DNA of 64,000 nucleotides from assembly GCA_963718235.1 (NCBI GenBank), contig CAVQYR010000001.1:480001-544000 (forward strand). Reading direction: 5' to 3'. Below the pieces are notes generated by a model. That model searched no databases, was not told where the DNA came from, and saw only the letters and a program-made list of their open reading frames with translations. Shown here piece after piece: positions 10,605-61,948 of this stretch (positions are counted from its first letter, which is position 1; the number at the start of each line of letters is the position of its first letter). The DNA comes from an uncultured Actinomycetota bacterium. GTDB taxonomy: Bacteria; Actinomycetota; Actinomycetes; JAHEKZ01. The position numbers and the translations under genes were made by a program.

Positions 10605-10648
10605 GGATCGACGCTAGCCGACGGCTCGTCGCGCTGCGGGACTCGCTG

Positions 10649-11419: not shown

Positions 11420-11480
11420 GTGCTCCTCGGTCGGTGCGGGTGGGGACGGTCAGTACCTTGCGCACAACATCGTTACGCCT

Positions 11481-12236: not shown

Positions 12237-12316
12237 GACCGAACCCTAGGCGCGAGGCATCGAACGGTAGGCCTGGAGTGGTTGCGCTGGCGGGTGACGG
12301 GCTCCACCATGGCGGG

Positions 12317-13879: not shown

Positions 13880-15301
13880 TTGACCGCGGACGAACCGATG
13901 AGGCTGGGCGCACAGCGCGACGCCGTGCTCGACCACGCCGCCGACCTCGTCAAGGAAGCATGGCGGTCGTTCGACGACGCTCGACCCACCGAGCCGACCA
14001 TGGACGACCGGGCTCTCGCCCTGCTCGCCGAGCGACTGCCGGAGGGCGCGCTCGACCCGGCGTCCGCACTCGATGAGCTCACGCATGTCCTCGACCGTTC
14101 GATCGCCCAGTCGCGCCCTCGCTACCTGGCCTACGTCGGCTCCAGCGGTCTCGAGATCGGGGCGGTCGCCGACCTCATCGCGGCCTCCTACGACGTCAAC
14201 CTCGCCGTCGACGCTCGGGCGGCCTCTCGGCTGGAGGAGCAGGCCGCCTCTTGGCTCAGTGACTTCCTCGGCTACCCGGCCGCCGGGGGGTGGTTCACCA
14301 GCGGGGGGACGGTCTCGAACCTGTCCGGCCTGGCCGCGGCCCGCGAGCGGGCGCTGCCCGGGTCCCGTCGCGACGGCATGTTCGGCGTCCGGTCCGCGCT
14401 GTACTGCTCGGCCGAGGCCCACTACTCGGTGAGCCGCGGCGCCGAGCTGCTCGGCATGGGCTCTCGGTCGGTGCGCGACATCCCAGTCGACCCGACGACG
14501 CGGCGGATGCGCACCAGTGAGCTGCGCAGCGCGCTCGAGTCCGACCTCGCAGCCGGGGTCGTGCCGGTGGCGGTCGTCGGGACCGCGGGGACGACGCTGA
14601 CCGGGGCCGTCGACCCGCTCGACGAGATCGCCGACATCTGTGCCGAGCACCGGGTCTGGATGCACGTCGACGGGGCCTACGGCCTGCCCGCGGCCGCGAC
14701 GTCGAGACACACCCTCTTCACCGGGCTGGACCGTGCCGACTCGGTGTCGGTCGATGCGCACAAGTGGTTGTTCGTGCCCAAGGCATGCAGCGCTGTACTG
14801 ACCAAGCACCCGTCCGCCTTCGCCGCCGTGTTCTCCCATGACGAGGCGTACATGCCCCACCAGGAGTCGACCCACAACGCGGTCGACCTCACCCTGGAGT
14901 ACTCACGCCCGCTGCGTGCCCTCAAGCTCTGGCTCGCCTTCCGGGTCCACGGGGCGCACGAGGTCCGGTCGGCCCTGGAGCGCAACCTGGGCCAGGCCCG
15001 GCTGTGCTACGACCTGAGCGCCAGGTCCGCCGACTTCGAGGTCATGTCATTGCCGCCAGCACTGTCGGTCGTCCCGATCAGGCACATGGTGCCGGGCTGT
15101 CCCGACGTCGACGCGCACAACCGGCTGCTGGCCCAGAGACTGCAGGACGACGGACGAGTCTTCATCTCGCCCGGGACGATCGACGGGCAGGACTGGCTGC
15201 GCCCGTGCTTCACCAACGTGCGGACGAGAACAAGCGACGTCGAGGTCCTCCTCGAGGTCGTCAGGGAACTGGGGGGCGCCCTGTGCCCCCAGCATCGTTG
15301 A
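13880..15301 (+). CDS. Group II PLP-dependent (aromatic amino acid-type) decarboxylase
   Basis: FTSGGTVSN, AHYSV, GTAGTTLTGAVDPL, HVDGAYG, DAHKW (PLP Lys); GAGGAG RBS before TTG. Confidence 0.88.
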   Translation: MTADEPMRLGAQRDAVLDHAADLVKEAWRSFDDARPTEPTMDDRALALLAERLPEGALDPASALDELTHVLDRSIAQSRPRYLAYVGSSGLEIGAVADLIAASYDVNLAVDARAASRLEEQAASWLSDFLGYPAAGGWFTSGGTVSNLSGLAAARERALPGSRRDGMFGVRSALYCSAEAHYSVSRGAELLGMGSRSVRDIPVDPTTRRMRTSELRSALESDLAAGVVPVAVVGTAGTTLTGAVDPLDEIADICAEHRVWMHVDGAYGLPAAATSRHTLFTGLDRADSVSVDAHKWLFVPKACSAVLTKHPSAFAAVFSHDEAYMPHQESTHNAVDLTLEYSRPLRALKLWLAFRVHGAHEVRSALERNLGQARLCYDLSARSADFEVMSLPPALSVVPIRHMVPGCPDVDAHNRLLAQRLQDDGRVFISPGTIDGQDWLRPCFTNVRTRTSDVEVLLEVVRELGGALCPQHR

Positions 15302-15320
15302 GTCGAACGAGAGCAGGCTG

Positions 15321-16553
15321 ATGACGGACGACGACCAGCAGCGAGCACCCAGCGATCGGGCCGAGGCCGCGGTCGCGGACTTCCTGGCCGCGGTGACCGT
15401 CGACGACCTGGACCGAGACCCCTACCCGATCTACGCCCGCCTTCGCCGCGAGGCACCAGTGGCTCACGTACCTGCGGTCGACACCTGGTTCGTCACTCGG
15501 TACGACGACGTCACCTTCGTCGCCGAGCACCCCGAGCTGTTCCCCGCCGAGCACGGTGAGTCCCCGGTCGAGGTCACCTTCGGCAAGCCCACCTTGATCA
15601 CCGTCGACGGTCCCGTGCACCACGACCTGCGGCGCAGCTTCGACCCGAACTTCCGCCCACGTCGGGTCCAGGAGTACGTCGACGACCTGGTTCGGCCCTT
15701 GGCCCTTCGTCGCGCCGGCGGGCTGACCGGACTTAGTGAGGCCGAGCTGATGGCGGAGTACTTCGAGCCGATCTCGGTGCTCAGCCTCGCGTCGGTGCTC
15801 GGTCTTGGGGACGTCGACGTCGAGACGCTGCGGCGCTGGTTCCACGGCATGAACCTCGGTGCGACGAACTTCGAGCGCGACCCGGACAAGCAGGCCGAGG
15901 CGGATGCCGTCTGCGCCGAGATCGACGCAGTCGCCGTCCCGCGCATGGAGCGACTCCTGACCGAGCCCGACGACTCGACGATGTCCCACCTGCTCCATGC
16001 GGGCGCTCCGCAGGGTCAGCCGCGGGCGATCGAGCACGTGCTGCCTTCGCTGAAGGTCGCGATCCTGGGCGGGATGCAGGAACCCGGGCACGCCGCCGGC
16101 ACCGTGATGTGTGGTCTGTTCAGCCAGCCGGACCAGCTGGCTGAGGTTCGCTCCGACCCGGTCGCGATGGTGGTCCCGGCGGTCGAGGAGGGCCTGCGGT
16201 GGGTCGCGCCGATCGGCACCCAGTTCCGTACGGCGGGCCGCGACGTCGAGCTCGGCGGAGCCACGATCCCCGCGGGGGCCGGAGTCTCCGCAGTGCTGGC
16301 GTCGGCCAACCGCGACGAGTCGCTGTTCGACGACCCGGACCGGTTCGACCTGCACCGCTCCAACCGCAAGCAGGCCGCCTTCGGCTTCGGCAAGCACTTC
16401 TGCTCCGGCCACTCCTTCGCCCGAAGGCAGATGCAGATCGCGGTCGAGGTGCTGTTCGCCACGTGCCCGGACGTGCGACCGGTACCGGACCGACCGGCCC
16501 GCTTCCGTGGCTGGGAGTTCAGGGCGCCGGCGGAGCTACCGGTCCTGCTGTAG
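15321..16553 (+). CDS. Cytochrome P450, CYP255/GcoA-like (aromatic O-dealkylase-like)
   Basis: EGLRW, FGFGKHFCSG heme motif; I-helix GGMQEPGH (GcoA has GAMQEPGH); GcoA-like segments TFGKP, DDLVRPLA, FRGWEFRAP. Confidence 0.85.
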   Translation: MTDDDQQRAPSDRAEAAVADFLAAVTVDDLDRDPYPIYARLRREAPVAHVPAVDTWFVTRYDDVTFVAEHPELFPAEHGESPVEVTFGKPTLITVDGPVHHDLRRSFDPNFRPRRVQEYVDDLVRPLALRRAGGLTGLSEAELMAEYFEPISVLSLASVLGLGDVDVETLRRWFHGMNLGATNFERDPDKQAEADAVCAEIDAVAVPRMERLLTEPDDSTMSHLLHAGAPQGQPRAIEHVLPSLKVAILGGMQEPGHAAGTVMCGLFSQPDQLAEVRSDPVAMVVPAVEEGLRWVAPIGTQFRTAGRDVELGGATIPAGAGVSAVLASANRDESLFDDPDRFDLHRSNRKQAAFGFGKHFCSGHSFARRQMQIAVEVLFATCPDVRPVPDRPARFRGWEFRAPAELPVLL

Positions 16554-17270
16554 CCGGGCGGCGTCGACGAAGGCGCGCACGATCGCCCTCTGCTGCGCGT
16601 CGTCGGCCATGTCCTCCGGGTGCCACTGCACGCCGAGGAACCACCAGCCGTCGCGACCCACGGTCGCGACCGCCTCGACGGTGCCGTCGTCCGCCCTGGC
16701 CAACGTCCGCAGACCCGCACCCAGTGTGTCGATGCGCTGGTGGTGGTAGCACGAGACGGCGAGGTCGTCGGTGACGTCGACTCCCTTGGGCCAGCCGTCG
16801 CCGTCGACCTCGACGGTGTGCCGCACCTCGGTGTGCACGACCTCGCGGTGAGGCTCCTCCATGTGCTGCTCGAGGGTTCCGCCCAACGCCACGTTGACGA
16901 CGTGCAGTCCACGGCAGACCGCGAGCAGCGGAACGCCACGGTCGAGCGCCCAGGTGGCTACTGCGAGGTCCATGGAGTCCTGCACGGTGTCGACGTCGTA
17001 GAGATGCTCGGAGTCGACGTCCTGGCCGTAGCGGCGTGGGTCGAGGTCGCCACCGCCGGGCAGCAGGATCCCGTCGATGAAGCTCAGCCGCTCACCTACC
17101 TCCTGGGGACTGAGTGCGTCGACATCGGGCCACGGCAGCAGGGACAGGGGCTCACCGCCGGCCTCATGGACCATCGTGAGCAGCGCTCGCGCGTTGACGG
17201 CAGCGGCGTACCTGAGGGCCGAGGTGGCGGCGGCGAACCGGGCCGGGATGCCGATCAGCGGGCGACTCAC
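16536..17270 (-). CDS. Gamma-glutamyl-amide hydrolase, PuuD/peptidase C26 family
   Basis: LLPGGGDLDP, LLAVCRG, YHHQ, GVQWHPE. Confidence 0.88.
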   Translation of the reverse strand: MSRPLIGIPARFAAATSALRYAAAVNARALLTMVHEAGGEPLSLLPWPDVDALSPQEVGERLSFIDGILLPGGGDLDPRRYGQDVDSEHLYDVDTVQDSMDLAVATWALDRGVPLLAVCRGLHVVNVALGGTLEQHMEEPHREVVHTEVRHTVEVDGDGWPKGVDVTDDLAVSCYHHQRIDTLGAGLRTLARADDGTVEAVATVGRDGWWFLGVQWHPEDMADDAQQRAIVRAFVDAARLQQDR

Positions 17271-18514
17271 CCGGCAGCGACCTTCACCGGGAATCGCTTG
17301 ATGCCATGGATGAAGTTCGAACGCACGTGCTCGACCTCACCGTTCAGCTCGAGGTGGACGTCGCGGCGCAGGAGCTCCTCGATCATGATCCGGACCTCCA
17401 GGCGCGCCAGCTGGTTGCCCAGGCAGAAGTGCGGACCGCCCTTGCCGAACGTCACGTGGTCGTTGTTCGTGCGCTTGATGTCGAAGACGTCGGGGGCTTC
17501 GAAGACAGCCTCGTCCCGGTTGCCGGAGGCGTACCACATGACGACTTTGTCGCCTTCTCGGATACTCCGGCCGTGCAGCTCGTGGTCGCGGGTCGCGGTG
17601 CGGCGGAAGTGGTAGACGGGTGAGGCCCAGCGCAGGAACTCCTCGACCGCTGCGGGAAGGAGCTCGGGCTGCTCGCGCAGTGTCTCCGCGGCGTCGGGAT
17701 GCTCGATGAGTGCCCGCATGGTGTGCGACAGCGTGTGCCGGGTCGTCTCGTTGCCAGCGGCGACCAGTAGCAGGAAGTAGTTGTGGAAGTCACGCTCGGA
17801 CAGCGGGACGCCGTCCTCTGGCACCTGGTTCACGAGCTTGCTGACGAGGTCGGTTCCGGAGCCTCCTTGGCGTTCACGGGCGAGGGAGTCGCCGTAGGCG
17901 AAGACCTCGAGTGCGGCAGGGGAGCGGAACGGAAGGTCGCGGTACTGCTCGGACTCCTCGCTCTCCAGCAGGACGTCGGCATAGTCGGGGTCGGTGTTGC
18001 CGACCAGCCGGTTGCTCCACTTGATGAACTGGTCACCCATCTCGTCGGGAACGTCCATCAGGCGGACCAGCACCCGGATCGGGTAGTCGGCGCTGACCGA
18101 CTTCACGAAGTCGAACTCGCCCTGGGCGAACGCAGCGTCCAAGGTGACCGCAGTGAGTCCGCGCAGGAATGTCTCGTAACCGGCCAGGCCACGTGCGGTG
18201 AACTCCCGCTGCAGCAGGCGGCGCAGGGCCCAGTGGCGGGCGCCGTCGGTCTCGAGCATCGACTTGCGCACCTCGAGCTGCGAGGCATCCAGCTCTTCGA
18301 TGCCCACCGCCCCGCGCTCGGAGGAGTACGTCTCGTCGTCCCGGCCGACCGCGACGATGTCGTCGTGGCGGGTCAGCGACCAGAAGCCGTGGTTCGGGGA
18401 AGGCTCGGGGTTCCAGTGGACCGGAGCCTGCTCGCGCAGCACGCGGAACGCGCCCCAGGGGGCGCCACCGGCGAAGAGGTCGAGGTCGGAGAGGTCGATG
18501 TCGTCAGGGGTCAC
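17267..18514 (-). CDS. Cytochrome P450
   Basis: AGNETT, EEFLRW, SGNRDE, FGKGGPHFCLG. Confidence 0.93.
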   Translation of the reverse strand: MTPDDIDLSDLDLFAGGAPWGAFRVLREQAPVHWNPEPSPNHGFWSLTRHDDIVAVGRDDETYSSERGAVGIEELDASQLEVRKSMLETDGARHWALRRLLQREFTARGLAGYETFLRGLTAVTLDAAFAQGEFDFVKSVSADYPIRVLVRLMDVPDEMGDQFIKWSNRLVGNTDPDYADVLLESEESEQYRDLPFRSPAALEVFAYGDSLARERQGGSGTDLVSKLVNQVPEDGVPLSERDFHNYFLLLVAAGNETTRHTLSHTMRALIEHPDAAETLREQPELLPAAVEEFLRWASPVYHFRRTATRDHELHGRSIREGDKVVMWYASGNRDEAVFEAPDVFDIKRTNNDHVTFGKGGPHFCLGNQLARLEVRIMIEELLRRDVHLELNGEVEHVRSNFIHGIKRFPVKVAAG

Positions 18515-42584: not shown

Positions 42585-43392
42585 CGAGCAGCCGCGGCGC
42601 GGTGTCCTTGGGCTCGACGCCGTCACCGCTGGAGACACCGCGCAGCCTTCGGCCCAGCCACGGCGCAAGGTGGGTGCGCGCCCAGTGCGCGTCCTCGAGC
42701 ACGGCCTGACGACGTGCCATCGGAGCCTGCGGCGGAAGTGGCTGGGACCACCACGCCGGGTCGCAACCGGCGGCGCTCGACTCGGCGCCGCTGAGCACGT
42801 GCCAGACCAGGGCGGCGACCCGGCGGTGTCCCTCCGGTCCCAGGTGCAGCCGGTCGGCGTCCCACATCCGTCGGTCGCCGAGCGCCGGCAGCGCTGCCTG
42901 GTCGACCAGGTTCGCTTCGTATCGCCCGGCCGTCGCGCGGATGGAGTCGTTGAATCGGCCGAACCGGTCGGCCAGTCGGCTCGCCGTGCGACCCGTGCCC
43001 CCCGCACGCTCGATGACCGTGAACAGCAGGACGCTGACACCACGGTCGGAGAGCAGACGCACCGCCCGGTCGTAGCGGTTGGCCAGGTCGTGCAGGTCGA
43101 CCCGGGGGCGCAGCGCGTCGTTCGGCCCGCCGTGGAAGGAGACGAGCGTGGTCGGTGGGTCATCGATCATCCGAAGGGCCGGAACGAGCTGCTCGACGAC
43201 GACCTGGTCCAGCAGCTTTCCCCGTACGGCCAGGTTGGCGTAGCGCACCGACCCGTTCGTCGCGGCCAGGGTCTCGACCACGCGGTCGGCCCAGCCGCGG
43301 TAGTGCCCGTCGGGTCGCAGCTCGTCGCTCATGCCCTCGGTGAACGAGTCGCCAAGGGCGAGGAACAGCGAGCAAGGGACTGGTGTGGGCAC
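42565..43392 (-). CDS. SGNH/GDSL hydrolase
   Basis: ALGDSFTEG, YANLAVRG, GGPND, DRLHL. Confidence 0.9.
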   Translation of the reverse strand: MPTPVPCSLFLALGDSFTEGMSDELRPDGHYRGWADRVVETLAATNGSVRYANLAVRGKLLDQVVVEQLVPALRMIDDPPTTLVSFHGGPNDALRPRVDLHDLANRYDRAVRLLSDRGVSVLLFTVIERAGGTGRTASRLADRFGRFNDSIRATAGRYEANLVDQAALPALGDRRMWDADRLHLGPEGHRRVAALVWHVLSGAESSAAGCDPAWWSQPLPPQAPMARRQAVLEDAHWARTHLAPWLGRRLRGVSSGDGVEPKDTAPRLLATPLQP

Positions 43393-43553
43393 ACCGTCAC
43401 GGTAGACGGCCCGGGAATCCCGCGACCGCATCCGGCCTCCGGTACCTAAGGCCCTGGCTGGTCCCAGCAGCCCTGGCTAGCGTGAAAGCGGGCCCGAACT
43501 CGGCGGTTCTCGGGTTTGGGCGGCCAGGGGGCCTAGAGGCTGAGGGAGTCGTC

Positions 43554-44585
43554 ATGACGAGCAGTCAGAGGATTCGGGTCGTCACCGGTGGGGTCGTCTG
43601 GGGCCTGGGCATGGCTCTGGCCGCAACGTTCGTCGCAGCCCCAGTTCAAGCATCGGCGGGACAGGGGGTCGTTCCCCCGCCACCGAGCAGTCTCGTGGTC
43701 AAGGCGAGGGATCTGGGAACGCTCCCCGGGGACTACTCGAGCGCTGCCACCGACATCAACGGCAGCGGGCTCGTCGTCGGCTACAGCTCCTCCGTCTCGA
43801 ACGTGACTCACGCCGCCTTGTGGCGCAGAGGAGTTGTGGTCCGCCTGCCCAGCCCTGGGAGCGAACAGGCCGAGGCCTTCGGCGTGAACGACCGTGGCTT
43901 CGTGGTCGGACGAGTCGGTGCCACTGCGGCCCTGTGGATGCGCGGGAAGCTCATTCGTCTCCAGCCACTTCCGGGAGGAGTCGGCAGCCGCGCCGAGGAC
44001 ATCTCGAACCGCGGACTCATCGTCGGCTACAGCGTCGACGCCGGCGGACATCCGGTTCCGGTGACGTGGTCGTGCGGCCGGGTGCGGGCCCTGGCTCTTC
44101 CTGTGGGTCGTACGGGCGGGCACGCTGACGGAGTGAGCAACTCCGGGCTCGTCGTCGGTGCGGCCGGGCCGGCGCTCAAGTGGACCCGTGGGGTTCCGAG
44201 CGAGCTGGGTCCGCTGGAAGGTGACCTTGGGGGCGTGGCCAGGTCCGTGAACGACCGCGGAGTGGCTGTTGGGTTCAGCTCGAGCAGCACGACGTGGCCG
44301 GTGGTCTGGAAAGGCTCGGCGCCCGCCGCGCTCCAGACCCCGGAAGGGACGACTGCCGGTACCGCCGAGTCCATCAACCGCTGGGGGAACGTCGTGGGCT
44401 GGCTGTCGGTGTCGGGAATGTCGCACCCGGCGCTCTGGTGGCACGGTACGTACGTCGACCTCGGCCCCGCCGGCCGTAGCGGGTACGCCTACGCGATCAA
44501 CGACTACGGGCGAGTCGTCGGGTGGTCGAGCTACGGCGCCACTCTGCATGCCACGCTCTGGAAGGTGACGACACCCGGCACATAG
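43554..44585 (+). CDS. Secreted HAF-repeat protein
   Basis: Signal peptide; repeated S-x-A-x-[DG]-[IV]-N-x-x-G-x-[VI]-V-G...HAALW units. Confidence 0.8.
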   Translation: MTSSQRIRVVTGGVVWGLGMALAATFVAAPVQASAGQGVVPPPPSSLVVKARDLGTLPGDYSSAATDINGSGLVVGYSSSVSNVTHAALWRRGVVVRLPSPGSEQAEAFGVNDRGFVVGRVGATAALWMRGKLIRLQPLPGGVGSRAEDISNRGLIVGYSVDAGGHPVPVTWSCGRVRALALPVGRTGGHADGVSNSGLVVGAAGPALKWTRGVPSELGPLEGDLGGVARSVNDRGVAVGFSSSSTTWPVVWKGSAPAALQTPEGTTAGTAESINRWGNVVGWLSVSGMSHPALWWHGTYVDLGPAGRSGYAYAINDYGRVVGWSSYGATLHATLWKVTTPGT

Positions 44586-44696
44586 ACCGACCGGTCGTTG
44601 CGCGAGCATGATCAGGTGGACCTGTCCTCTCACTCGCCCCCCGTGGAGACCTGTTAATCCCTTGCGCCCGGCGCGGGATTGTTGGACGTTGGGCAC

Positions 44697-45695
44697 ATGG
44701 GTTCGCTGCGCGCCGCGCTCGACCGGGAGGCCGAGAGAACGCTTTTCTCGGGCGTGGTGCGGGTCGACCGCGACGGCGCGACCGAGATGATGGCGTACGG
44801 CCACGCTGATCGCGCGTACAGCATCGGGATGACGACCGCTCACCAACTGGGGACCGCGAGCGTGACCAAGGGTTTCACCGCCCTGACGATCCTCAGCATC
44901 GTGGCCGCCGGCGACCTCGAGCTAGCGACGCCGGCGCGCTCGGTGCTCGGCTCCGACCTGCTGCTCGTCGACGACGAGGTCACCGTCGAGCAACTGCTGA
45001 GCCACAGGTCCGGCATTGCTGACTACTTCGACGAGTGGTCGGCGACGAGCAGCGACGACTACGTCATGCCGGTGCCGGTGCACCAGCTCGCGACCAGCGA
45101 GGACTACCTGCCGCTTCTCGACGGCCGGGCACCGGTCTCGGCACCGGGAGCCACGTTCGAGTACAACAACGGGGGCTTCGTCCTTCTCGCGCTCATCGCC
45201 GAGCGCGTGGCCCAGCTGCCGTTCCACGACCTTGTCGCCGAGCGCGTATGGAAGCCAGCCGGCATGGTGCGCACCGCGTTCCTGCGGTCCGACGCTCTGC
45301 CCGGCACGGCAGCGGTGGGTTATCTGGACACTGAGGGACTGCGCACCAATGTGCTGCACCTTCCGGTCCGTGGCAGCGGCGACGGAGGAGCATTCACGAC
45401 TGTCGCGGACATGAGCGCGTTCTGGGATGCGCTCCTCGCTGGCCGTATCGTCCCGGAGCGGTGGGTGGCCGAGATGCTGGTGCCGCGACAGGCGCCAGCC
45501 GGAACGGAGCTCGGCTACGGCCTCGGCGTCTGGCTGCACGCCGGTGGCGTCCTCGAGCTGCACGGGTACGACGCAGGCGTTTCGTATCGGTCGATGCACG
45601 ACCCTGCTTCGGCCAGCACCTGGACGGTCGGGTCCAACACGAGCGGCGGTTCGTGGCCTATGGAGGCGATCCTCGTTGCCGACCTCCCGCCGTGA
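44697..45695 (+). CDS. Serine hydrolase, beta-lactamase family
   Basis: FSGVV, ASVTKG (SxxK), QLLSHRSG, PGATFEYNN, GDGGAFTT, YGLG. Confidence 0.88.
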   Translation: MGSLRAALDREAERTLFSGVVRVDRDGATEMMAYGHADRAYSIGMTTAHQLGTASVTKGFTALTILSIVAAGDLELATPARSVLGSDLLLVDDEVTVEQLLSHRSGIADYFDEWSATSSDDYVMPVPVHQLATSEDYLPLLDGRAPVSAPGATFEYNNGGFVLLALIAERVAQLPFHDLVAERVWKPAGMVRTAFLRSDALPGTAAVGYLDTEGLRTNVLHLPVRGSGDGGAFTTVADMSAFWDALLAGRIVPERWVAEMLVPRQAPAGTELGYGLGVWLHAGGVLELHGYDAGVSYRSMHDPASASTWTVGSNTSGGSWPMEAILVADLPP

Positions 45696-45855
45696 CGGGA
45701 TGCAGCTCCAATCCTGCTGAATGCCGAAGATTGCCAGGGTCGGGTACAGCCAAGAAGACCATCGGGCACATCTGCGCTTGCCCGGCCCGTGCCGATCACC
45801 GGCACATCGCGCCACGATCACCGGCATGTCCAGATCTATGGGCCGCACTCCCGCG

Positions 45856-46231
45856 ATGCGGTTGACTGGATCTGTGCCAGTCGAGCCTGCGGCGTCCCGG
45901 TGGGGTGTGGCACTTGACCGCCCGTCCACGCGCCGATGGCTCTGGTTCGTCGCCTGGGTTGCGGTGGGGGCCATGGTGCCCATGGTTGTCCTGGGCGCTT
46001 TCACCATCGGCATCTTGTTCATCCCGGTCGCCGGGGTGCTGACATTGATCCTGCTCAGCCGTCGCGCCTCCTGGGTTGGCTTGCCAGGACTGATCACGGG
46101 CATCGGAGTGCCTCTGCTGGTGTTGGTAGGAGTGGGCCCCGTGGCCGTTTCTGCTGGTCAGCCTTGGACTCCTCATCGGCGGCATCGTCGTGTTCACCAG
46201 GCAGCGACCCAAGCCACCTGCCCCCGACTGA
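45856..46231 (+). CDS. Small membrane protein, probably frameshifted near 46140
   Basis: Three TM segments in ORF 45721-46266; a fourth (WPFLLVSLGLLIGGIVVF) continues in another frame to TGA ~46231. Confidence 0.5.
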
Positions 46232-46452
46232 TACCCCGACCCAGTGCAACCCGGAGGCCCTCGTGAGTGGGACGGTCGCTCCCGCACCGGCTAAGCCCTG
46301 AACGCCAACGAGAACGGCACATCGACGTGGCGACCGCCCCTTGAGACCGCGTTTCGCCTCGCTTCGTGGGCCACGCCTTTGTGTCCGTGTGGTGAGCGCG
46401 AACACGACGCTCTCCGTTGGCGGGGAGCCGGTACCGCGTCTAGCGTTGAGAC

Positions 46453-47376
46453 ATGAGAGCCATGGCCTATGACGCGTACGGTTCCGACGACGCTTTGACC
46501 TTGCGGGACATGCCCGATCCGAAGGTGGGTCCAGGCGAAGTGCGCATCCGGGTGAGACGCGCCGGAGTGAATCCGGTCGACTGGAAGGTGATGTCCGGTG
46601 GGCTGGATGGCCTCATGGACGCCGTCTTCCCGGTCATCCCCGGCTGGGATGTCGCCGGAACGGTCGAGACAGTCGGCATCGACGCCCCAGAGTTCGAGGT
46701 CGGCGACGAAGTCGTGGCATACGCACGCAAGGACGTGGTCCACGGCGGCACCTTCGCCGAACTGGTGACGATGAGCGTCCGGGGCGTGGCTCGCAAGGCG
46801 GAAGCGTTGAGTTGGGACGAGGCGGGCGGCCTCCCGCTCGCCGGGCTGACAGCCCTCCAGACGCTCGACCGGTTGACCGTCTCCGCCGCGGATACGGTTC
46901 TCGTGCACGGCGGAGCAGGGGGTGTCGGCGCCCTCGCCATCCAGATCGCCAAGGCGCGCGGCGCCCGTGTGATCGCCACCGCGTCGCCGGCCAACCACGA
47001 GTTCCTCTCCGGCCTCGGGGCCACGCCGGTCGCGTATGGCGACGGCGTCGTGCAGCGCATCCTCGAGGTTGCGCAGGACGGTGTCGACGTCGTCGCTGAC
47101 TTCGTGGGCGGGGTTCGCGACGTCACAATGGCCGTGCTCGCCACTGGCGGAAGGCACGCCTCCATCGCCGACGCTTCGGTGCTGGAGACCGGAGGCTCGT
47201 GGTTCTGGGTGCGGCCCTCGTCCGAGGGCCTGGCCGAGCTCGGTCAGCTGGCAGACGCCGGGCAGCTGTACGTCCCGGTTGCCGACGTCCTACCTTTGGA
47301 GGAGCTGACCGCTGCTTTCGCGCGCAGCCGGGAGGGTCATGTGCGCGGCAAGCTCGTCATCTCCGTCGCGGACTGA
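46453..47376 (+). CDS. NADP-dependent MDR/quinone oxidoreductase-like protein
   Basis: AGVNPVDWK, PGWDVAG, LAGLTALQ, HGGAGGVG, GHVRGKLVI. Confidence 0.92.
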   Translation: MRAMAYDAYGSDDALTLRDMPDPKVGPGEVRIRVRRAGVNPVDWKVMSGGLDGLMDAVFPVIPGWDVAGTVETVGIDAPEFEVGDEVVAYARKDVVHGGTFAELVTMSVRGVARKAEALSWDEAGGLPLAGLTALQTLDRLTVSAADTVLVHGGAGGVGALAIQIAKARGARVIATASPANHEFLSGLGATPVAYGDGVVQRILEVAQDGVDVVADFVGGVRDVTMAVLATGGRHASIADASVLETGGSWFWVRPSSEGLAELGQLADAGQLYVPVADVLPLEELTAAFARSREGHVRGKLVISVAD

Positions 47377-47429
47377 AGTGCCGTAGAACGGCACTCGGCG
47401 GCAGAGCGGTTAGGCCAGGGTGTAGTCGA

Positions 47430-47840
47430 TCATCGGTAGGGGAGGTAGTCGATGCGGGTCGCGCGTCGCCGCCACCCTGGAAGGGGCCAGACGTTGTGCC
47501 AGGTACGGCTGACTGCGGTGCCGTCGCGCTCCTCAACGCAACCGCCCCGCCCCAGGTGGTAGGCGGTGGCTCTGCCCGCGACTGCTATGTCGAGGGTGTG
47601 CTCAACCGCCGGGCGGTCCCTGCTCGCGTCCTCTCCGAGTACTGCCGGGGCTGAGGCTGGGTCATCCAGGCGCACAGTTCCTGTTCCACCGATACCGAGG
47701 TACAGCACGACCCCTACTGATCCGGGGTTGTTGGGCTGGAGTCGGCAGGTGGACGAGCCGTCCTCGTCCGTGACCTCTAGGACTGCACAGTCAGGGAGTT
47801 GCGCGGCGCGTTCCTCGGAGTAGCTGCGCAGCTGCGACAT
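47430..47840 (-). CDS. Hypothetical protein
   Basis: Open frame from ATG 47840 filling the gap between two repeat sites; no recognisable motif. Confidence 0.5.
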   Translation of the reverse strand: MSQLRSYSEERAAQLPDCAVLEVTDEDGSSTCRLQPNNPGSVGVVLYLGIGGTGTVRLDDPASAPAVLGEDASRDRPAVEHTLDIAVAGRATAYHLGRGGCVEERDGTAVSRTWHNVWPLPGWRRRATRIDYLPYR

Positions 47841-47996
47841 GAGGACACGATTCGGGGAAGCCGTGGACCGTTCGTCGCATACCAACGCGAGCGAGATCGG
47901 CACGTCTGCTCGCGTTTCGGAGGGATGCGACCACCTGTCCAGCGTCATCCCGAGTGAGGATCCGCCTGCCTCCGGGTCCCGTGCCCCGGCGCGCCT

Positions 47997-48677
47997 TCAC
48001 GACTGCTCGGCGTCCGCGACCCCGAACTGTGTCCACTGCCCCTCGGAGATCACCTCGACGGAGCCGTCGACGACCTTGATGGCCGTCTGCTCGTCGATGG
48101 CGTAGGCGGGGATGCCGAGGTCAGCCGCCCACCGCTCCGCGTTGGCCAGGGTGTTGTCGGGGAAGGCGTTCAGGTGCGGGAAGATCGAGAAGTCGACGAC
48201 TCCCAACGTGCGGTCGTCCGGCGCGGACGGCCACTCCACGAAGGCCGCACCGACCCTCGGCGTCATCACCATGCTCCCAGCGCTCACCCCGACCCAGGCC
48301 TTGTCCGACAGCGTCGGCAGCAGGTCCGCTAACCCTGACTCGCGCATCCAATGGCACAGGTACGTCGCGTCACCGCCGTCGACAAGTAGCACGTCGGCCT
48401 CTCTGACCCATGGCACCCACCGCTCGGGCCCGATCGTGGGCAGTGCGGTGAGCTCGAGGACGCCAAGGGACGCCCAGCCCAAGCCGGACAGGTAACGGAA
48501 GTCGGGTTCGCACGCGACCAAGCCCCGCACCGATGTCGGGCCGCACATCGGGTGACCCCACTGCGCGGTCGGGACGCAGAGGGCGTGGCACTCCTCGACC
48601 GGCTTGCCAAGAAGTAGCACGAGCGCTGAGTGGATGGTTGGGTTCGTTACGCCCCCCGACGTAAGCAGCAGCTTCAT
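47997..48677 (-). CDS. Peptidase E / S51 family (type 1 GATase-like)
   Basis: MKLLLTSGG, VDGGDA, GVSAGSM, IFPHL, YAIDEQTAI. Confidence 0.88.
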   Translation of the reverse strand: MKLLLTSGGVTNPTIHSALVLLLGKPVEECHALCVPTAQWGHPMCGPTSVRGLVACEPDFRYLSGLGWASLGVLELTALPTIGPERWVPWVREADVLLVDGGDATYLCHWMRESGLADLLPTLSDKAWVGVSAGSMVMTPRVGAAFVEWPSAPDDRTLGVVDFSIFPHLNAFPDNTLANAERWAADLGIPAYAIDEQTAIKVVDGSVEVISEGQWTQFGVADAEQS

Positions 48678-48825
48678 GGTGCCTCCCGATTCGTGTGCGG
48701 GCTCGCAGACCGGCAGTAGCAGTCAAGCTCAAGTCAGACTCAGCCGACCGCGAATACATGTTCAACCGCGGGAGGCGATGCAGATCGGCACATAGAGGGC
48801 GGTTGTTCGCACCCAGGAGTGCCGT

Positions 48826-49233
48826 TCAGTTGATGATCTCGCTGCCATCTGCGCGAATCGCCGCCAACCGGTCCCGCCACTCCTGTAGGGCCGCCGGTGT
48901 CAGCCGCGTCCAGTCGGTCACCTCGCCAACGATCCTGAGTGCCTCTCCGCTGCGGTAGGACCGGGTTGGGTTACCGGGGAACTTCCTGTCGGTCACGTTC
49001 GGGTCGTCCTCGAACGCCCCAATCGGCTCAACGGCGTAGACCCGGGGAGCTGCGTCGCCTGGCGCGAGTTCCGCAGCGAGCCCCGCACCGTCACGCAGTG
49101 CAGTGAAGTAGATGTGGTTCATCAGGACTTCCGGTCGGTAGTTCGACCGGAAGCCCGGGATGAGGAGATCCCCCATCCCCAGGTCGGCTTTCGTTCCGTG
49201 GAAGAACGGCCCCTCATCCAGCACGTCGCTCAA
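48826..49233 (-). CDS. arr: NAD(+)-rifampin ADP-ribosyltransferase
   Basis: GPFFHGTKADL, NHIYFT, AAELA, VEPIGAFEDDPNVTDRKFPGNPTRSYRS; GGAGG RBS before TTG 49233. Confidence 0.95.
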   Translation of the reverse strand: MSDVLDEGPFFHGTKADLGMGDLLIPGFRSNYRPEVLMNHIYFTALRDGAGLAAELAPGDAAPRVYAVEPIGAFEDDPNVTDRKFPGNPTRSYRSGEALRIVGEVTDWTRLTPAALQEWRDRLAAIRADGSEIIN

Positions 49234-49361
49234 GGCCACTACCTCCGGGGACGAGACAAAGGTGCACTCGGACATCTTCGCGGATCATGCGAGAACCGAG
49301 CGCGATTTGCACATAGGCACGGCCTTGCCCAGTTCAGCCGTTACCGAGGATCATCCTCCGT

Positions 49362-49559
49362 ATGACATGGCGGCGATTCGCCCTCGGCGGACTCAGTTCC
49401 CTTGTGGCGCTCGTCGGCTATGTCGTGCTGTACCCGAGGCTTGTCGCTGCGGGCCATGCACCTCTGGACGCCCTCGGTTGGGCGCTGGCAGCTGCGTGTC
49501 TGGGCCTGTTCCTGGGCTCTCTCCTCATGGCGATCATGTCGCCGGCCAGGAGGCGCTGA
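49362..49559 (+). CDS. Small two-TM membrane protein
   Basis: 65 aa, two hydrophobic helices, basic tail. Confidence 0.55.
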   Translation: MTWRRFALGGLSSLVALVGYVVLYPRLVAAGHAPLDALGWALAAACLGLFLGSLLMAIMSPARRR

Positions 49560-49609
49560 CCCATCCCGTCCAGATCGGCACATCGGCGCGGCAGTGCCGG
49601 TGGTGACTG

Positions 49610-50071
49610 TCAATCGACAACTACTGGATCGTCGTCGGGGTTGAACACCGCTATCTCCTCGGGATCCAGGTCACAGGCGGTGGGGACCTCCAGAGCGATG
49701 TCAGCCGAGTCGGGGGCGTGGAAGCCACCCGCGCCTTGGACCGACTGACCCTCGGCGACCAGTGACCCGGACGGTAGCCGCACGACGAGCGGGTCAGCAT
49801 CGTCGAGCTCGGTGCCGCTCGGCCAGATGACCGCCACCACGCGATCCGGCGCGTATCCGAGCGCCAGGCCGACGCAGCCGTTGCGCAGGATCAGCGTTCC
49901 CGTGATCAGCGCGTCCTCCCCGCCACGCGGCAGCAGCGAGTCCTTGTGGACCATCAGGGTGACATCGCCTTCCGTCACAACCGTCTGCCCGCCACAAGCC
50001 GCGACGGTCGCCATGAGAACCACGGCGGCGCCCATGTAACCCGCCCGACGCCAATCAGCCGGTGCTCCCAT
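49610..50071 (-). CDS. Hypothetical lipoprotein
   Basis: Lipobox VAAC; DALITGTL...GCVGL...IWPSGT. Confidence 0.65.
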   Translation of the reverse strand: MGAPADWRRAGYMGAAVVLMATVAACGGQTVVTEGDVTLMVHKDSLLPRGGEDALITGTLILRNGCVGLALGYAPDRVVAVIWPSGTELDDADPLVVRLPSGSLVAEGQSVQGAGGFHAPDSADIALEVPTACDLDPEEIAVFNPDDDPVVVD

Positions 50072-50173
50072 AAGGGTCAGAATGCCGGATTGGGTGCAGG
50101 AAGGCGATCGAGAACGGCACCTCGGTGCGCCGGGCTCGGACTGGTTTCGTCGGGTCGTGGATAGCATCAGACG

Positions 50174-50779
50174 ATGTCCTTCGATGCCGTCATCTTCGAC
50201 CTTGGTGGCGTGCTCATCGACTATCAAGGAGTCGAACCGCTGAAGGTTCTCGCCGGCATTCAGGACGAGCAAGAGTTGTGGCGGCGCTGGCTCAGCTGCG
50301 AGTGGGTTCGCCGCTTCGAGCGGGGCCAGTGCTTGCCGGCGGAGTTCGCGAGTGGGGTTGTCGCCGATTGGGACCTTGGCGTGACCCCGGATGTGTTCCT
50401 GGCCCAGTTCCGGAGCTGGGTCCACGGGACGATCCCGGGTGCTGATGCCTTGGTCGCGGCCGTGCGGACCGAGGTTCCGGTGGCGTGCCTGAGCAATACC
50501 AACAGCCTGCACTGGCTCGACGGGGCATCGCAGTGGCCCTTCGTCGACCTGCTCGACCATGTCTTCTTGTCGTTCCAGCTGGGGATGGTCAAGCCCGACC
50601 GGGAGATCTTCGACCACGTCAGCCGGCAACTAGGGGCACCGGGCCGACGGCTGCTGTTCCTGGACGACAACACCTTGAACGTCGAGGCGGCAGTCGATGC
50701 TGGGTGGATCGCGGCAAAGGTGGACGGGGTGAATCAGGCCACGCAGGCACTCGCCCACCATGGGGTCCTACCCAGATGA
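50174..50779 (+). CDS. HAD-superfamily phosphatase
   Basis: FDLGGVL, LSNTN, KPD, FLDD. Confidence 0.92.
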   Translation: MSFDAVIFDLGGVLIDYQGVEPLKVLAGIQDEQELWRRWLSCEWVRRFERGQCLPAEFASGVVADWDLGVTPDVFLAQFRSWVHGTIPGADALVAAVRTEVPVACLSNTNSLHWLDGASQWPFVDLLDHVFLSFQLGMVKPDREIFDHVSRQLGAPGRRLLFLDDNTLNVEAAVDAGWIAAKVDGVNQATQALAHHGVLPR

Positions 50780-50823
50780 CCGCACCTGTCCTCCGACGCA
50801 CATAGCGGCACTTCGGGGCGGCG

Positions 50824-51609
50824 TCAGGGCACCTGCCCGATTGCCTCCAGAACTGAGTCTTCGAGCCCGCGATAGCAGGTGAGGCACTCATCAATGGCCT
50901 CGAAGCCGACCGACTCATAGAGGGGCCGCCCGGCTGGCGTGGCCAGGAGAAGCGCTTCCGATGTTGCAGTCGACCATGTCGCGGCGAGGGCAGTCGTCAG
51001 GGCCGCCCTGCCTGCCCCTCGTCCCTGATGTCGCTTTGGCGTCATCATCTCCATGACTCCGATGCTGGATCCGGACCGACAGATCCAGACGGTGCTTACC
51101 GGTTGTCCACCGTGTCGAGCCAGCCACACCTGGGCCGCACCGAAACGAGCCGCCTGGCCCATGCTGGCGTCGAGCAAGTCGAGATCGACCGTGTGCGCCT
51201 CAGAGGTCAGGCGCAGCGCGACCTCGAGGTCCCCGTCGGTTTCGCAGCGCGAGACGCTGAACTTCGACGGGACGACCTCGGGTCGGTATCCGCACCTCAT
51301 CAAGGGCTCGGACATCTCGCCAGTGGTGAACCCCGCGTCAGTCAGGACGCGACGCGACGCAGGGATCAGATGCTCGGACGTGAAGACGATCCCCGGTTGA
51401 TCGGTGCCAACAACCTGTGCCAGATCGGAGGCGGACTTGTCGGATGCCCTCGGGGAGAGGCCGCAGACGTTCAGCTCGGCACTGCTCATCCGAGACAGCG
51501 CGGCGAACCAGCCATCCGACAGCACTCGTTCCGCCTCGACCCCGGCGGCGTAGAAATCGACGCACAGCGAAGCGAAGGACTCCCACGACTTCTGAAGGGC
51601 TGGATCCAT
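50824..51609 (-). CDS. GNAT N-acetyltransferase
   Basis: HQGRGAG acetyl-CoA motif; ATPAGRPLYESVGF. Confidence 0.85.
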   Translation of the reverse strand: MDPALQKSWESFASLCVDFYAAGVEAERVLSDGWFAALSRMSSAELNVCGLSPRASDKSASDLAQVVGTDQPGIVFTSEHLIPASRRVLTDAGFTTGEMSEPLMRCGYRPEVVPSKFSVSRCETDGDLEVALRLTSEAHTVDLDLLDASMGQAARFGAAQVWLARHGGQPVSTVWICRSGSSIGVMEMMTPKRHQGRGAGRAALTTALAATWSTATSEALLLATPAGRPLYESVGFEAIDECLTCYRGLEDSVLEAIGQVP

Positions 51610-51779
51610 GTGAGCGATACTGGCACCGATATTGCTCGGGTGACGTCGCCAGCTCGTGGGTACGAGCCGAACTGGAGAGCGCGAGGAGGACACCGGGCGT
51701 TCGGCACCGAGGTCGCCGGCGTCACTCGCATACCTTCGCTCGTCCGACCTGGCGCGGGCTCGATCGCCTGACTGCCGGG

Positions 51780-59934: not shown

Positions 59935-61948
<2,014 letters not shown>

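Follow-up and report, generated by a model that had tools for sequence, protein, structure and literature searches.

The closest described counterparts of the locus reported herein include integrons, whose attC sites are conserved mainly in structure, and pdif modules, which carry alternating C/D and D/C sites on plasmids. Two sources deal with pdif modules of Acinetobacter plasmids and with integrative elements that exploit Xer recombination (IMEX) (PMC7399989, PMC9455709). For the phylum of the host examined here, two other sources record no complete integron by IntegronFinder (PMC9024848, PMC4889954). The actinobacterium in question, which is high in GC, holds unrelated accessory genes, including the rifampicin-modifying arr, as single-gene units parted by a conserved site of constant direction. 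Units have been swapped at this site between distant relatives, and the whole resembles gene capture in the style of integrons, in a group said to have none.

We consider it probable that the region from 44.57 to 51.7 kb of the window (the whole 64-kb stretch of DNA that was analyzed) consists of about ten mobile single-gene cassettes, which lie between direct-repeat recombination sites of ~30-60 nt, termed S, and are served by a tyrosine recombinase in trans. Excision and insertion of cassettes by such an enzyme are inferred, and its likeliest identity, again by inference, would be a 303-aa Xer-like recombinase known from S-adjacent loci. Clustering, breakpoints, and shuffled units support the original prediction of an integron-like or dif-module-like gene-accretion system, although its circles and activity remain undemonstrated: neither circular cassettes nor excision junctions nor activity of an enzyme were observed, and all the evidence is comparative.

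The decamer AGAWCGGCAC matches exactly at seven places in the window. Six of these, on the + strand, start at the positions given earlier (46311, 47385, 47894, 48782, 49572, and 50111; span 46311-50120), and the lone − strand match, at 60590, has a coding-like context. In 100 dinucleotide-preserving shuffles of the window, the mean expectation was 0.23 and a count of seven was never reached (0/100), in rough agreement with the chance estimate made earlier. The decamer is the center of the longer site S, gCGAnSS-AGAW-CGGCAC-nTCGG-nGCGG, whose downstream half, CGGCAC-nT[AC]G, occurs between 44000 and 52000 seven times on the + strand and not at all on the − strand (0.3 expected per strand). Five degenerate copies had also been proposed. 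Four of these stand: the one at 49303 (previously placed at 49304; CGATTTGCAC) by its score with a position matrix trained on sites of the same genome (17.1; 13.5 in the genome-wide scan), and those at 44576, 45800, and 50806 by the presence of the downstream half. The fifth, at 51702 (CGGCACCGAG), lacks both arms and cannot be told from chance. As had been claimed, every S site in the window is + oriented irrespective of gene direction, with four array genes antiparallel and four parallel to the sites.

The array probably begins at its left-most site (CACCCGGCAC followed by ATAG; 44572..44581, +), which carries CGGCAC-nT[AC]G, scores below the matrix cut, has a chromosomal left arm, and overlaps the 3′ end of a HAF-repeat ORF. 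Unit 1 encodes a serine hydrolase of beta-lactamase fold (44679..45695, +; PF00144, E 1.5e-39) and is followed by TCACCGGCAC plus ATCG (45796..45805, +), where CGGCAC-nT[AC]G is again present. Unit 2 (45806..46310, no strand assigned) has overlapping ORFs at 45721-46266 (+) and 45796-46287 (−), and is followed by the exact core AGAACGGCAC (46311..46320, +; matrix score 35.1). The gene of unit 3 is an MDR/zinc-type dehydrogenase (ADH/MDR; 46453..47376, +), and the exact core after it (47385..47394, +) directly follows an exact inverted copy of itself (GTGCCGT-AGA-ACGGCAC, 47378-47394). Unit 4 is assigned to 47430..47893 (−), its listed ORF (47430-47948) crossing the next core, and unit 5 encodes a Peptidase_S51 protein (47997..48677, −); the sites following these two units are exact copies of AGATCGGCAC (47894..47903 and 48782..48791, both +).

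Unit 6 encodes Arr (rifampin ADP-ribosyltransferase family, Arr-ms; 48826..49275, −; PF12120, E 3e-45), has homologous units in at least five related genomes, and precedes the variant CGATTTGCAC plus ATAG with left arm GAACCGAGCG (49303..49312, +). A 65-aa ORF (49362..49559, +) makes up unit 7, after which come another exact AGATCGGCAC core (49572..49581, +) and unit 8 (49582..50110, no strand assigned). The long form of S at 50080..50135 (+) comprises the left element ATGCCGGAT, a spacer, GCGATCG, the core AGAACGGCAC (50111-50120), and CTCGG, and is 82% identical to C1:1185630-1185686 of the same genome. Beyond it are the HAD hydrolase gene of unit 9 (50174..50779, +), a site with the downstream half (ATAGCGGCAC plus TTCGGGGCGG; 50802..50811, +) whose core variant recurs in other arrays, and the GNAT acetyltransferase gene of unit 10 (50824..51693, −). 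The right-most site (CGTTCGGCAC CGAG; 51698..51707, +) is doubtful and without the arm motif, and homology with a same-genus genome (G001) picks up again at 51798. The ten-gene list drawn up earlier is roughly right. Pfam matches, by which the unit genes were assigned, back the serine hydrolase, MDR, Peptidase_S51, Arr, HAD, and GNAT genes, and the Pfam search of the array gave no family match for units 2, 4, 7, and 8, among which the earlier labels of membrane protein, 2-TM protein, and lipoprotein are putative.

A comparison of 66 S sites indicates how the site may be built. Positions −2 and +2 flanking CGGCAC are complementary in 57 of them, with the caveat that the inverted-arm symmetry is short (2-3 positions). 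A second, left element, TGCCGGATC, is often found 28-29 nt upstream of the core; it lies upstream in 26/66 sites versus downstream in 5/66, and starts 28-29 nt ahead of the core in 20 of 27 placements. We propose that CGGCAC is an asymmetric 6-nt crossover stretch at the center of S, flanked by short, imperfectly inverted left (gCGAnSS)AGAW and right nTCGG(nGCGG) arms, a layout that would have the anatomy of a tyrosine-recombinase core site. S would have polarity because its center is asymmetric. A cassette would extend from one crossover to the next, bearing only the short right arm at one end and, at the other, the left arm, a spacer, and, in about one-third of sites, TGCCGGATC at a fixed distance. 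Separately, the second inverted element of S contains an extra base (TGCCG(G)ATC versus GAWCGGCA).

Homology between genomes breaks at the same place. Among 108 ends of 27 inter-genome alignments, 19 fall at an S core (−10 to +20 around the core) compared to 1.31 expected. A DinB/MST unit is shared at 97.7% identity over 683 nt (L001:10417-11099 and L018:12615-11933 of G196) by two genomes labeled as different families; in each genome the match spans core position 2 to 5 nt beyond the following core and is flanked by unrelated DNA. Unit 5 (47898-48791) matches G003:C5:200941-201838 core to core at 78% identity, from core position 5 to core position 10, and its 3′ part has a 91% copy in the second array of its own genome. 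Unit 8 matches G003:C5:195835-196257 (72%) from 2 nt ahead of the core in both genomes, and homology of unit 3 to the DNA of three other genomes (81-88%) stops at 47376-47384. Breakpoints in CGGCAC are as well established as the sites, their clustering, and the presence of one gene per unit, and the crossover, judged from these alignments, maps to CGGCAC. Unit homology had been expected to start and stop in the motif, with units shuffled or absent elsewhere, and this is what we observe. Two genomes (G157 and G092) have a tRNA-Gly(gcc)-Cys-Val flank in common (68% over 4.2 kb), beyond which their arrays share nothing. Both the occurrence of one unit in different arrays and families and that of different units at one chromosomal spot are established. 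A contig of metagenomic run X2 carries the HAD unit, starting at 50115 (core position 5), after a different sequence ending in GGCGAGCCCTAT; the junction restores an S site whose left arm is a different one. X2 also contains the reference junction. This variant rests on a single low-depth Logan contig, and the four metagenome runs are from one study that may include the sample of origin of the genome.

Across 50 inter-site intervals (8 loci, 6 genomes), there is one gene per unit, and the median interval is 755 nt; 31 intervals have their gene antiparallel to the site, 17 have it parallel, and 2 have no gene. The cargo consists of accessory enzymes and transporters, with enrichment of detoxification-type enzymes (DinB/MST, NUDIX, HAD, GNAT, SnoaL, and Arr). 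A strict S pattern is found in 6/6 genomes of genus g49, which belongs to another family, and its reversed control gave 0 matches. A metagenome scan found S sites in 38 of 120 loci, at least two sites in 26, and a single-strand arrangement in 20 of those 26.

Within the 3.17-Mb genome, the decamer occurs exactly 50 times, and matches outside two clusters look like scattered coding-sequence matches. The only cluster besides the window array is at C1:1.176-1.191 Mb, and all 13 matrix matches scoring at least 29 fall in the window array or in C1:1179564-1191373. S is thus confined to two accessory loci and is not a REP-like, genome-wide motif; the latter pattern would have counted against the original prediction. 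At the second locus, S orientation flips along with the prevailing gene orientation. The array there lies within an 11.8-kb segment bounded by a 300-nt direct repeat, one end of which is in the tRNA-Gly(tcc) anticodon loop, while the other coincides exactly with the 3′ end of an S core. An adjoining phage-type integrase has an in-frame stop in G000 and a frameshift in G115, and in both genomes S sites adjoin tRNA-Gly(tcc). Other arrays abut tRNA clusters or sit a few kilobases from tRNA or tmRNA genes.

The recombinase was predicted to be encoded elsewhere and to co-occur with such arrays. No recombinase gene exists in the window, and a candidate, still unproven, does adjoin S sites at other loci. 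Tyrosine recombinases are present in all array genomes examined; of five such genomes, one has a Resolvase-family (serine) recombinase, far from its arrays, and none has a Y1 transposase. The 303-aa Xer-like tyrosine recombinase is the best candidate. Intact copies adjoin S sites in L194 and G092, at a distance of 0.1-0.6 kb, and another lies ~3.2 kb from an S site in L259; broken or cut copies exist in G000, G001, G005, G247, and MAG L114. The copy in the genome under study, which borders the second array (C1:1174616-1175368), is 5′-truncated, having lost ~52 N-terminal residues. Because L194 and L259 were found via the S pattern, they are biased as evidence; among six recombinase loci (≥76% identity) found without reference to S, four have S within about 3 kb. 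A left-element copy also precedes the recombinase start by 55-110 nt in 4/4 loci examined. However, several of the copies could represent orthologous loci within a single lineage, and the copies do not all point the same way with respect to the nearest S site. No candidate above 37% identity was found in array-bearing G003, G063, G177, and G157, G196 has just one frameshifted copy (57% identity), whose contig is devoid of S sites, and the arrays examined in G196, G063, G177, and G157 have no recombinase at the edge.

It remains possible, if unlikely, that the same cassette system is run by the housekeeping XerC/XerD enzymes and that the array-side Xer-like gene is a passenger. No recombinases other than XerC- and XerD-like ones (150-160 bits to PF00589) occur in every array genome examined, and in G177, a 99% complete genome, Xer-like genes number just three. 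Enzymes of the serine and Y1 types are otherwise missing, S has an arm-6 nt-arm layout, and its reversed core (GTGCCGATCT, variant GTGCCGATAT) contains the GCCGAT(A) that is also present in the XerC arm of the host dif (TTCGCCGATAA-TAGACA-TTATGTCATTT). In addition, arrays persist, and a unit has moved recently (97.7% identity), without an intact dedicated enzyme. However, beyond these 6-7 letters S is unlike dif: the conserved inner ATAA/TTATG found in the two dif arms gives way mostly to AGAW/nTCGG in S, and a XerD-like arm is absent. Furthermore, S sites are direct repeats, compared to the alternating orientation in pdif modules, and the arrays are away from the terminus (dif at C1:1.739 Mb).

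Part of S resembles a promoter that would serve leaderless cassette genes. On the gene strand, the left element reads as a −10-like CAsTAT 7 nt ahead of the start codon, which is exactly 11 nt from the element in 19/66 sites (other offsets score 0-6), so that many cassettes seem to come with a promoter of their own. Because only about one-third of sites have the left element and the window array is split four versus four, this applies to a subset only. We find it improbable that S is mainly an expression signal (promoter, leaderless start, or transcript end) of a stress or xenobiotic regulon, with sharp boundaries created by occasional homologous or short-homology recombination after DNA uptake and no dedicated recombinase. 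The promoter-like spacing, the detoxification-type cargo, the location of the core 15-47 nt past the stop codon of antiparallel genes, and the lack of an adjacent recombinase in most arrays are consistent with this proposal. However, S direction is fixed even though 17/48 genes are parallel, unlike a promoter or terminator, and scans of both arrays gave no sigma-70 promoter or T-tract terminator at S. Likewise, breakpoints fall within one 6-nt stretch and not across 30-60 nt of shared sequence, RecA-type exchange would have little to work with in 10-30 nt of shared sequence, and the proposal leaves unexplained how unrelated genes became S-flanked.

That S is a selfish REP-, MITE-, or BIME-like repeat spreading by itself, or mere chance, is very improbable and already largely refuted: some copies could form hairpins (47378-47394) and several predicted folds have the left element paired with the core, but core intergenic regions are free of S, a Y1/RAYT-type gene is present in 0/5 genomes examined, S has no Rfam match, genomes share whole gene-plus-site units and not bare repeats, and the shuffle, arm-motif, and breakpoint counts exclude chance.

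The cassette array that we favor can be compared with three known systems. Like tRNA-targeting integrative islands, the second array has a repeat in tRNA-Gly(tcc) and an adjoining phage-type integrase. However, such an integrase accounts for island delivery and not for one-gene periodicity or CGGCAC breakpoints, and the window array has neither a tRNA nor an integrase nearby. With pdif modules and IMEX, S arrays share small gene modules, short arm-6 nt-arm sites of tyrosine-recombinase type, and an enzyme encoded outside the module. In contrast to these, S has just 6-7 letters in common with the host dif, the arrays lie away from dif, they are long, chromosomal, and built on direct-repeat sites, and a plasmid collection contained no S arrays.

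Integrons differ in several respects. As originally noted, S has no attC layout (RYYYAAC...GTTRRRY boxes), and the genome has no integron integrase (best model match 74 bits, cut-off 265); membership among integrons is rejected in the absence of IntI and attC. Moreover, the S sequence (CGGCAC plus arms) is well conserved across arrays and families, the bulk of S is 5′ of the usual cassette gene and not 3′, about one-third of the genes are reversed, and the cassettes seem to carry their own promoter with no reliance on a common Pc. Yet, as in integrons and CALINs (arrays without an integrase), most units consist of one accessory gene of about 0.5-1 kb that is unrelated to the others, recombination sites of constant direction, each a hybrid of two cassettes, delimit the units, and cassettes are common to and shuffled among genomes. 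S also parallels integron sites in its inverted second element, which includes one additional base, and some arrays have at their edge a tyrosine recombinase gene, often decayed, that is divergent from the cassette genes (L194, G000), while many have none. Both arrays in this genome are probably sedentary at present because their recombinase copy is truncated, and in this they resemble integron arrays without integrase.

The decamer AGAWCGGCAC, the core of the sites that we call S, occurs seven times in the 64-kb window, a count reached in none of 100 dinucleotide-preserving shuffles of the whole window (shuffle mean 0.23). An exact-match search places six of these on the + strand at 46311, 47385, 47894, 48782, 49572, and 50111, precisely where the original prediction had put the exact sites of a gene-cassette array. 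Five variant sites had also been proposed, four of which can be upheld. The site at 49303 scores 17.1 with a position matrix built from the sites themselves, and those at 44576, 45800, and 50806 each bear the half-motif CGGCAC-nT[AC]G, which is present seven times on the + strand and never on the – strand between 44000 and 52000 (0.3 expected per strand). The fifth, at 51702, has neither arm of the site and may be a chance match. The only exact decamer beyond the array, at 60590-60599 on the – strand, is taken as chance because its context is coding-like and it lacks the S arms.

Among the gene names given to the units, Pfam confirms the beta-lactamase fold, MDR dehydrogenase, Peptidase_S51, Arr, HAD, and GNAT; no family match was obtained for the other units. 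The array seems to start inside the end of a chromosomal gene, since the last codons of a 400-aa ORF with HAF repeats (43383-44585, + strand; NCBIfam TIGR02913) overlap the first S variant. The sole tRNA of the window lies 20 kb from the array. No tyrosine recombinase was found inside the window, in keeping with the prediction that the enzyme is encoded elsewhere.

The exact decamer occurs 50 times throughout the 3.17-Mb genome (two contigs, 70% G+C), mostly at scattered, coding-like positions. Scanning with the position matrix, the motif clusters at two places only: the window array and a second locus on contig C1 (C1:1176629-1191373). An alignment of 66 sites from nine loci in seven genomes yields the consensus gCGAnSS-AGAW-CGGCAC-nTCGG-nGCGG. 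In 57 of the 66, the letters two positions out from CGGCAC on the left and on the right complement each other, and S can therefore be described as short inverted arms flanking an asymmetric six-letter center. A second motif, the left element TGCCGGATC (up to two changes), stands upstream of the core in 26 of the 66 sites and downstream in five, and begins 28-29 nt ahead of the core in 20 of 27 placements. No shared structure emerged when 26 sites were folded as single sequences, and only some of the predicted folds pair the left element with the core. Identity with an Rfam family was rejected, as permissive-threshold searches of both arrays returned only chance-level matches and tRNAs.

The proposal that the array arose by integron-like gene accretion is supported by this clustering, by homology bounded by S, and by shuffling of the units. 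In BLASTN comparisons with 20 relatives, single units match at scattered places, and homology stops at or beside S. For example, the MDR unit (46434-47384) has matches of 88% identity in a genome of another family, 86% within the genus, and 81% in a third genome. In genome G003, the match to the Peptidase_S51 unit extends from core to core, and the match to the unit following 49572 begins 2 nt before the core, in an order unlike that of the window. A 683-nt DinB/MST unit is 97.7% identical between the genome under study (G000) and G196, whose families differ by database labels; in both, identity runs from core position 2 to 5 nt past the next core, and the neighbors differ. In other unit pairs, identity can start at core position 5 and always ends at or just after the final CAC. 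These end points indicate that the crossover lies in CGGCAC, such that a unit carries the right arm at one end and the left arm, spacer, and left element at the other.

This pattern extends to the full set of 27 inter-genome alignments of at least 150 nt (17 loci, 10 genomes), in which 19 of 108 alignment ends fall between –10 and +20 of a core (1.31 expected). As the ends of an alignment come in dependent pairs, the binomial statistic overstates the case. In G196, from another family, a large same-strand array of at least 18 matrix-positive sites extends over 15 kb, and G063, G157, G177, and G092 have arrays as well, with 13 sites on a single contig in G092. The strict S pattern was found in all six genomes of one genus of that family, and a reversed control gave no matches. 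The median of 50 inter-site intervals is 755 nt. The arrays of G157 and G092 share a tRNA-Gly(gcc)-Cys-Val flank and nothing beyond it, and S sites adjoin tRNA-Gly(tcc) in both G000 and G115. Seven genomes flagged as unpublished (G025, G270, G372, G054, G042, G033, and G308) enter only the tallies of the relatives BLASTN and of a 16-letter pattern scan, and no claim depends on them. From these comparisons of genomes, the assignment of S as a putative recombination site is well supported.

In the second locus of G000 (L001, C1:1174001-1194000), the site scan found S on the – strand at 2629, 3971, and 5564, nine sites on the + strand from 7457 to 12426, and five on the – strand from 13989 to 17373. 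The prevailing gene direction flips together with S orientation. The cargo includes SnoaL, HAD, F420H2-dependent quinone reductase, 2′-5′ RNA ligase family, and two DinB/MST genes, as well as NUDIX, methyltransferase, APH-type kinase, epimerase, arginase, and rhodanese genes. An 11.8-kb segment is flanked by a 300-nt direct repeat of 98% identity (L001:5559-5858 and 17368-17667, or C1:1179559-1179858 and 1191368-1191667), which ends in the anticodon loop of tRNA-Gly(tcc) on one side and at the exact 3′ end of an S core on the other. A copy of the 3′ part of the Peptidase_S51 unit with its S core (window 47887-48141; C1:1187036-1187289, – strand; 91% identity) sits in this array where S orientation flips. 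We also observed that GAACCGGCA, in the T-arm region of tRNA-Gly(tcc) (L001:5844 and 17653, and likewise in loci L010, L144, and L295), has the same nine letters as the reversed left element. This likeness may be due to chance, or may hint that S descended from a tRNA attachment site.

Metagenomic data provide a glimpse of array variation. Four runs from one study, examined as low-depth Logan contigs that may include the genome's own source sample, contain 26-42% of the array's sampled words; no RNA data set is listed among the runs that contain it. One contig of run X2 matches the window from 50115 (core position 5) onward; the 82 letters ahead of the match differ from the window and end in GGCGAGCCCTAT, which restores an S site with a different left arm. 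A second X2 contig spans the reference junction. The variant, a single contig, looks as a different upstream cassette would. Joints between non-adjacent units were absent from the four runs, where depth is low and uncovered parts are uninformative.

Wider scans were less informative. A search of genome contigs with CGANSSAGAWCGGCACNTCGG gave at least 120 stretches, nearly all of those listed being single chance matches in many phyla, and says little on distribution. Among the matches listed, the only convincing array is that of L114, an uncultured Actinomycetes MAG with three sites, two of them high-scoring; nine more loci have two or three mostly low-scoring sites each. A metagenome scan with TGCCGGATC-N19-20-AGAWCGGCAC gave at least 120 loci, and 82 of those listed have no matrix-positive S and are chance or coding matches that include a recurrent conserved enzyme gene. 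About 20 of the loci listed as L151-L270 (e.g., L153, L163, L173, and L175) carry a conserved coding stretch containing GTCGAATCCGAGGAGATCGGCACCGTCGGCGTGGGCG, which fits the bipartite pattern by accident and accounts for many false metagenome matches. The 16-letter pattern occurs in 264 of 401 genomes of the class, a tally made uninformative by a background of about one match per genome; only clustered matches were used. A blastn search of a plasmid collection with 5.1 kb of the second array revealed no arrays, only gene-level matches (NUDIX, DinB, and quinone reductase).

The left element has features that suggest a role in expression. Read on the gene strand, it takes the form GAWCCGGCA-sTAT-CrCTCGs followed by ATG or GTG. 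Among 66 sites with the element, drawn from 190 distinct S sites, the start codon lies exactly 11 nt from the element in 19, and every other offset has between zero and six. Within the element, CAsTAT carries an A at position 2 and a T at position 6, as a –10 box does, and 7 nt separate its end from the start codon. Such a geometry between –10 box and start codon is expected for leaderless transcripts in actinobacteria. We infer that, in a subclass of sites only, the left element may be a cassette-borne promoter for a leaderless mRNA, where expression itself remains an inference. Simple consensus scans of both arrays found neither a sigma-70 promoter nor a T-tract terminator at S.

Of the recombinase classes, only tyrosine recombinases were found in every array genome. 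We consider a 303-aa Xer-like member the most likely S enzyme, with both this identity and any present-day activity unshown. In G000, its gene lies at the far left of the second locus (L001 616-1368, – strand) and is 5′-truncated, some 52 residues short of intact copies. Two metagenome contigs have an intact 303-aa copy beside S: L194 (88% identity), in which gene and first cassette are divergent and the stop of that cassette adjoins an S core, and L259 (84% identity). Both were found through the S pattern and therefore constitute a biased sample. When 251 genomes of the class were searched without reference to S, 19 contained the family at E ≤ 1e-70. Identity reaches 76% or more at six loci (intact in G092, at C7:1055570-1056478; two copies in G150; truncated in G000; broken in G005; and cut by a contig end in G247). 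In four of the six, S lies no more than about 3 kb away; for the more distant homologs, a site within 1.5 kb is mostly lacking. Each of the four loci examined (L194, G092, G247, and G150) has a left-element copy 55-110 nt ahead of the recombinase start, and remnants of the gene occur near S in G001 and L114.

Judged by NCBIfam equivalog cut-offs, the candidate (domains PF13495, PF00589, and PF02899) belongs to neither XerC nor XerD, with 123.7 bits against the XerD model (cut-off 329.6), 118.6 against XerC (335.15), and 130 against PRK00283 (279). The integron-integrase model gives 72.6 bits and aligns only with the C-terminal part. Falling below the XerC, XerD, and IntI cut-offs, the candidate forms a Xer-like family of its own within a large environmental family in which one homolog (74% identity) is labeled Dermatophilaceae. 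At locus L295 in G092 (G092:C7:1052857-1058998), the neighbors of the intact gene are a 459-aa phage-type integrase, an IS30-like (HTH_38 and rve) transposase, and an SBF transporter gene, and the S sites on the recombinase's two sides run in opposite directions. The IS110 and rve transposases in the vicinity of the gene in L259 and G092 appear to be unrelated insertions.

A tyrosine recombinase stands beside S in several genomes, but none was found at the array edge in G196, G063, G177, or G157. Three further observations argue against the 303-aa candidate. No copy above 37% identity is present in array-bearing G003, G063, G177, or G157; the copy in G196 has a frameshift and lies on a contig that lacks S; and orientation relative to S varies. 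The main alternative is that the housekeeping XerC and XerD drive S recombination, their binding and catalysis at S being hypothetical. XerC/D-like genes are present in all array genomes, where two Xer-like tyrosine recombinase genes per genome are all that is held in common, and G177 has three Xer-like tyrosine recombinases only. However, S differs from the sites of pdif modules and IMEX elements, which resemble the host dif (XerC arm, 6 nt, XerD arm), as the reversed S core has only GCCGAT(A) in common with the XerC arm of the host dif and S has no XerD-like arm. The probable dif, TTCGCCGATAA-TAGACA-TTATGTCATTT (G000:C1:1739233-1739266), is one of two ATAA-N6-TTAT palindromes genome-wide and the only one with dif-like arms.

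Other candidates were set aside. A phage-type tyrosine integrase (L001:5902-7407, + strand) lies inside the repeat-bracketed segment and adjoins the tRNA fragment, but is interrupted by a single in-frame stop (6547-6549). Its relative in G115 (42-46% identity; L144:9086-10101), which is followed by an S site, is frameshifted, and G115 has the only homolog among the array loci searched. Both genes occupy the same tRNA-Pro/tRNA-Gly(tcc) spot, as fits a tRNA-integrating island, and we therefore set this integrase aside as the S enzyme. Among serine recombinases, a Resolvase-type gene is present in one of five array genomes, far from the arrays. A REP/RAYT or IS200/IS605-type repeat is dismissed, as the sites form two clusters without genome-wide spread and Y1 transposases (PF01797) occur in none of the five array genomes.

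Integrons are the textbook bacterial device for collecting and reshuffling single genes. We tentatively propose, at odds that we place a little short of even, that Actinomycetes have their own independently evolved counterpart, with the Xer-like 303-aa recombinase capturing single-gene cassettes and reshuffling them at a site defined by sequence (crossover CGGCAC) that has a promoter and leaderless start inside it, and with cassettes, including arr, that cross families and gather at tRNA-adjacent and other hot spots. If true, a separate cassette system, distinct in its site and probably in its recombinase, and with leaderless cassettes that supply their own promoters, would fill the integron gap in this group. 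It would also open a new route by which accessory and resistance-type genes, among them arr and those for APH-like kinases, GNAT, beta-lactamase-fold enzymes, and efflux pumps, could spread among soil and sediment bacteria. Cassettes would be easy to spot in metagenomes by the sequence-defined S, and the recombinase-site pair would be new to genetic tools for high-GC bacteria. IntegronFinder surveys report no complete integron in Actinobacteria, for reasons called unclear (PMC9024848, PMC4889954). A full-text literature search found no published description of such arrays, with supplementary lists, which possibly hold Actinobacteria CALIN calls, outside its scope.

Comparison with integrons reveals both shared and distinct features. 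Cassettes of one ORF plus one site, sites in the same direction, and shuffling between arrays are common to both, as are hybrid junction sites and a tyrosine recombinase beside some arrays that is often decayed. In contrast, G000 has no IntI (best genome-wide TIGR02249 score 74.2 bits; cut-off 265). The attC sites of integrons are imperfect palindromes of 57-141 nt, R''(RYYYAAC)...R'(GTTRRRY), conserved in structure rather than sequence. As had been anticipated, the 66-site S consensus has neither the GTTRRRY nor the RYYYAAC box, although the inverted second element in 26 of the 66 sites leaves a distant structural likeness to attC. Promoterless, co-oriented cassettes served by a common Pc next to attI also seem to be absent: of the 50 inter-site intervals, 31 have a gene antiparallel to the site, 17 have a parallel one (17 of 48 genes), and two have none, and in a subclass of sites a –10-like box and start codon lie at a fixed distance inside the cassette. 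The system is integron-like in its working but does not qualify as an integron, a Xer/dif module, or a REP element by the membership criteria, and it has a fair chance of being an independent invention.
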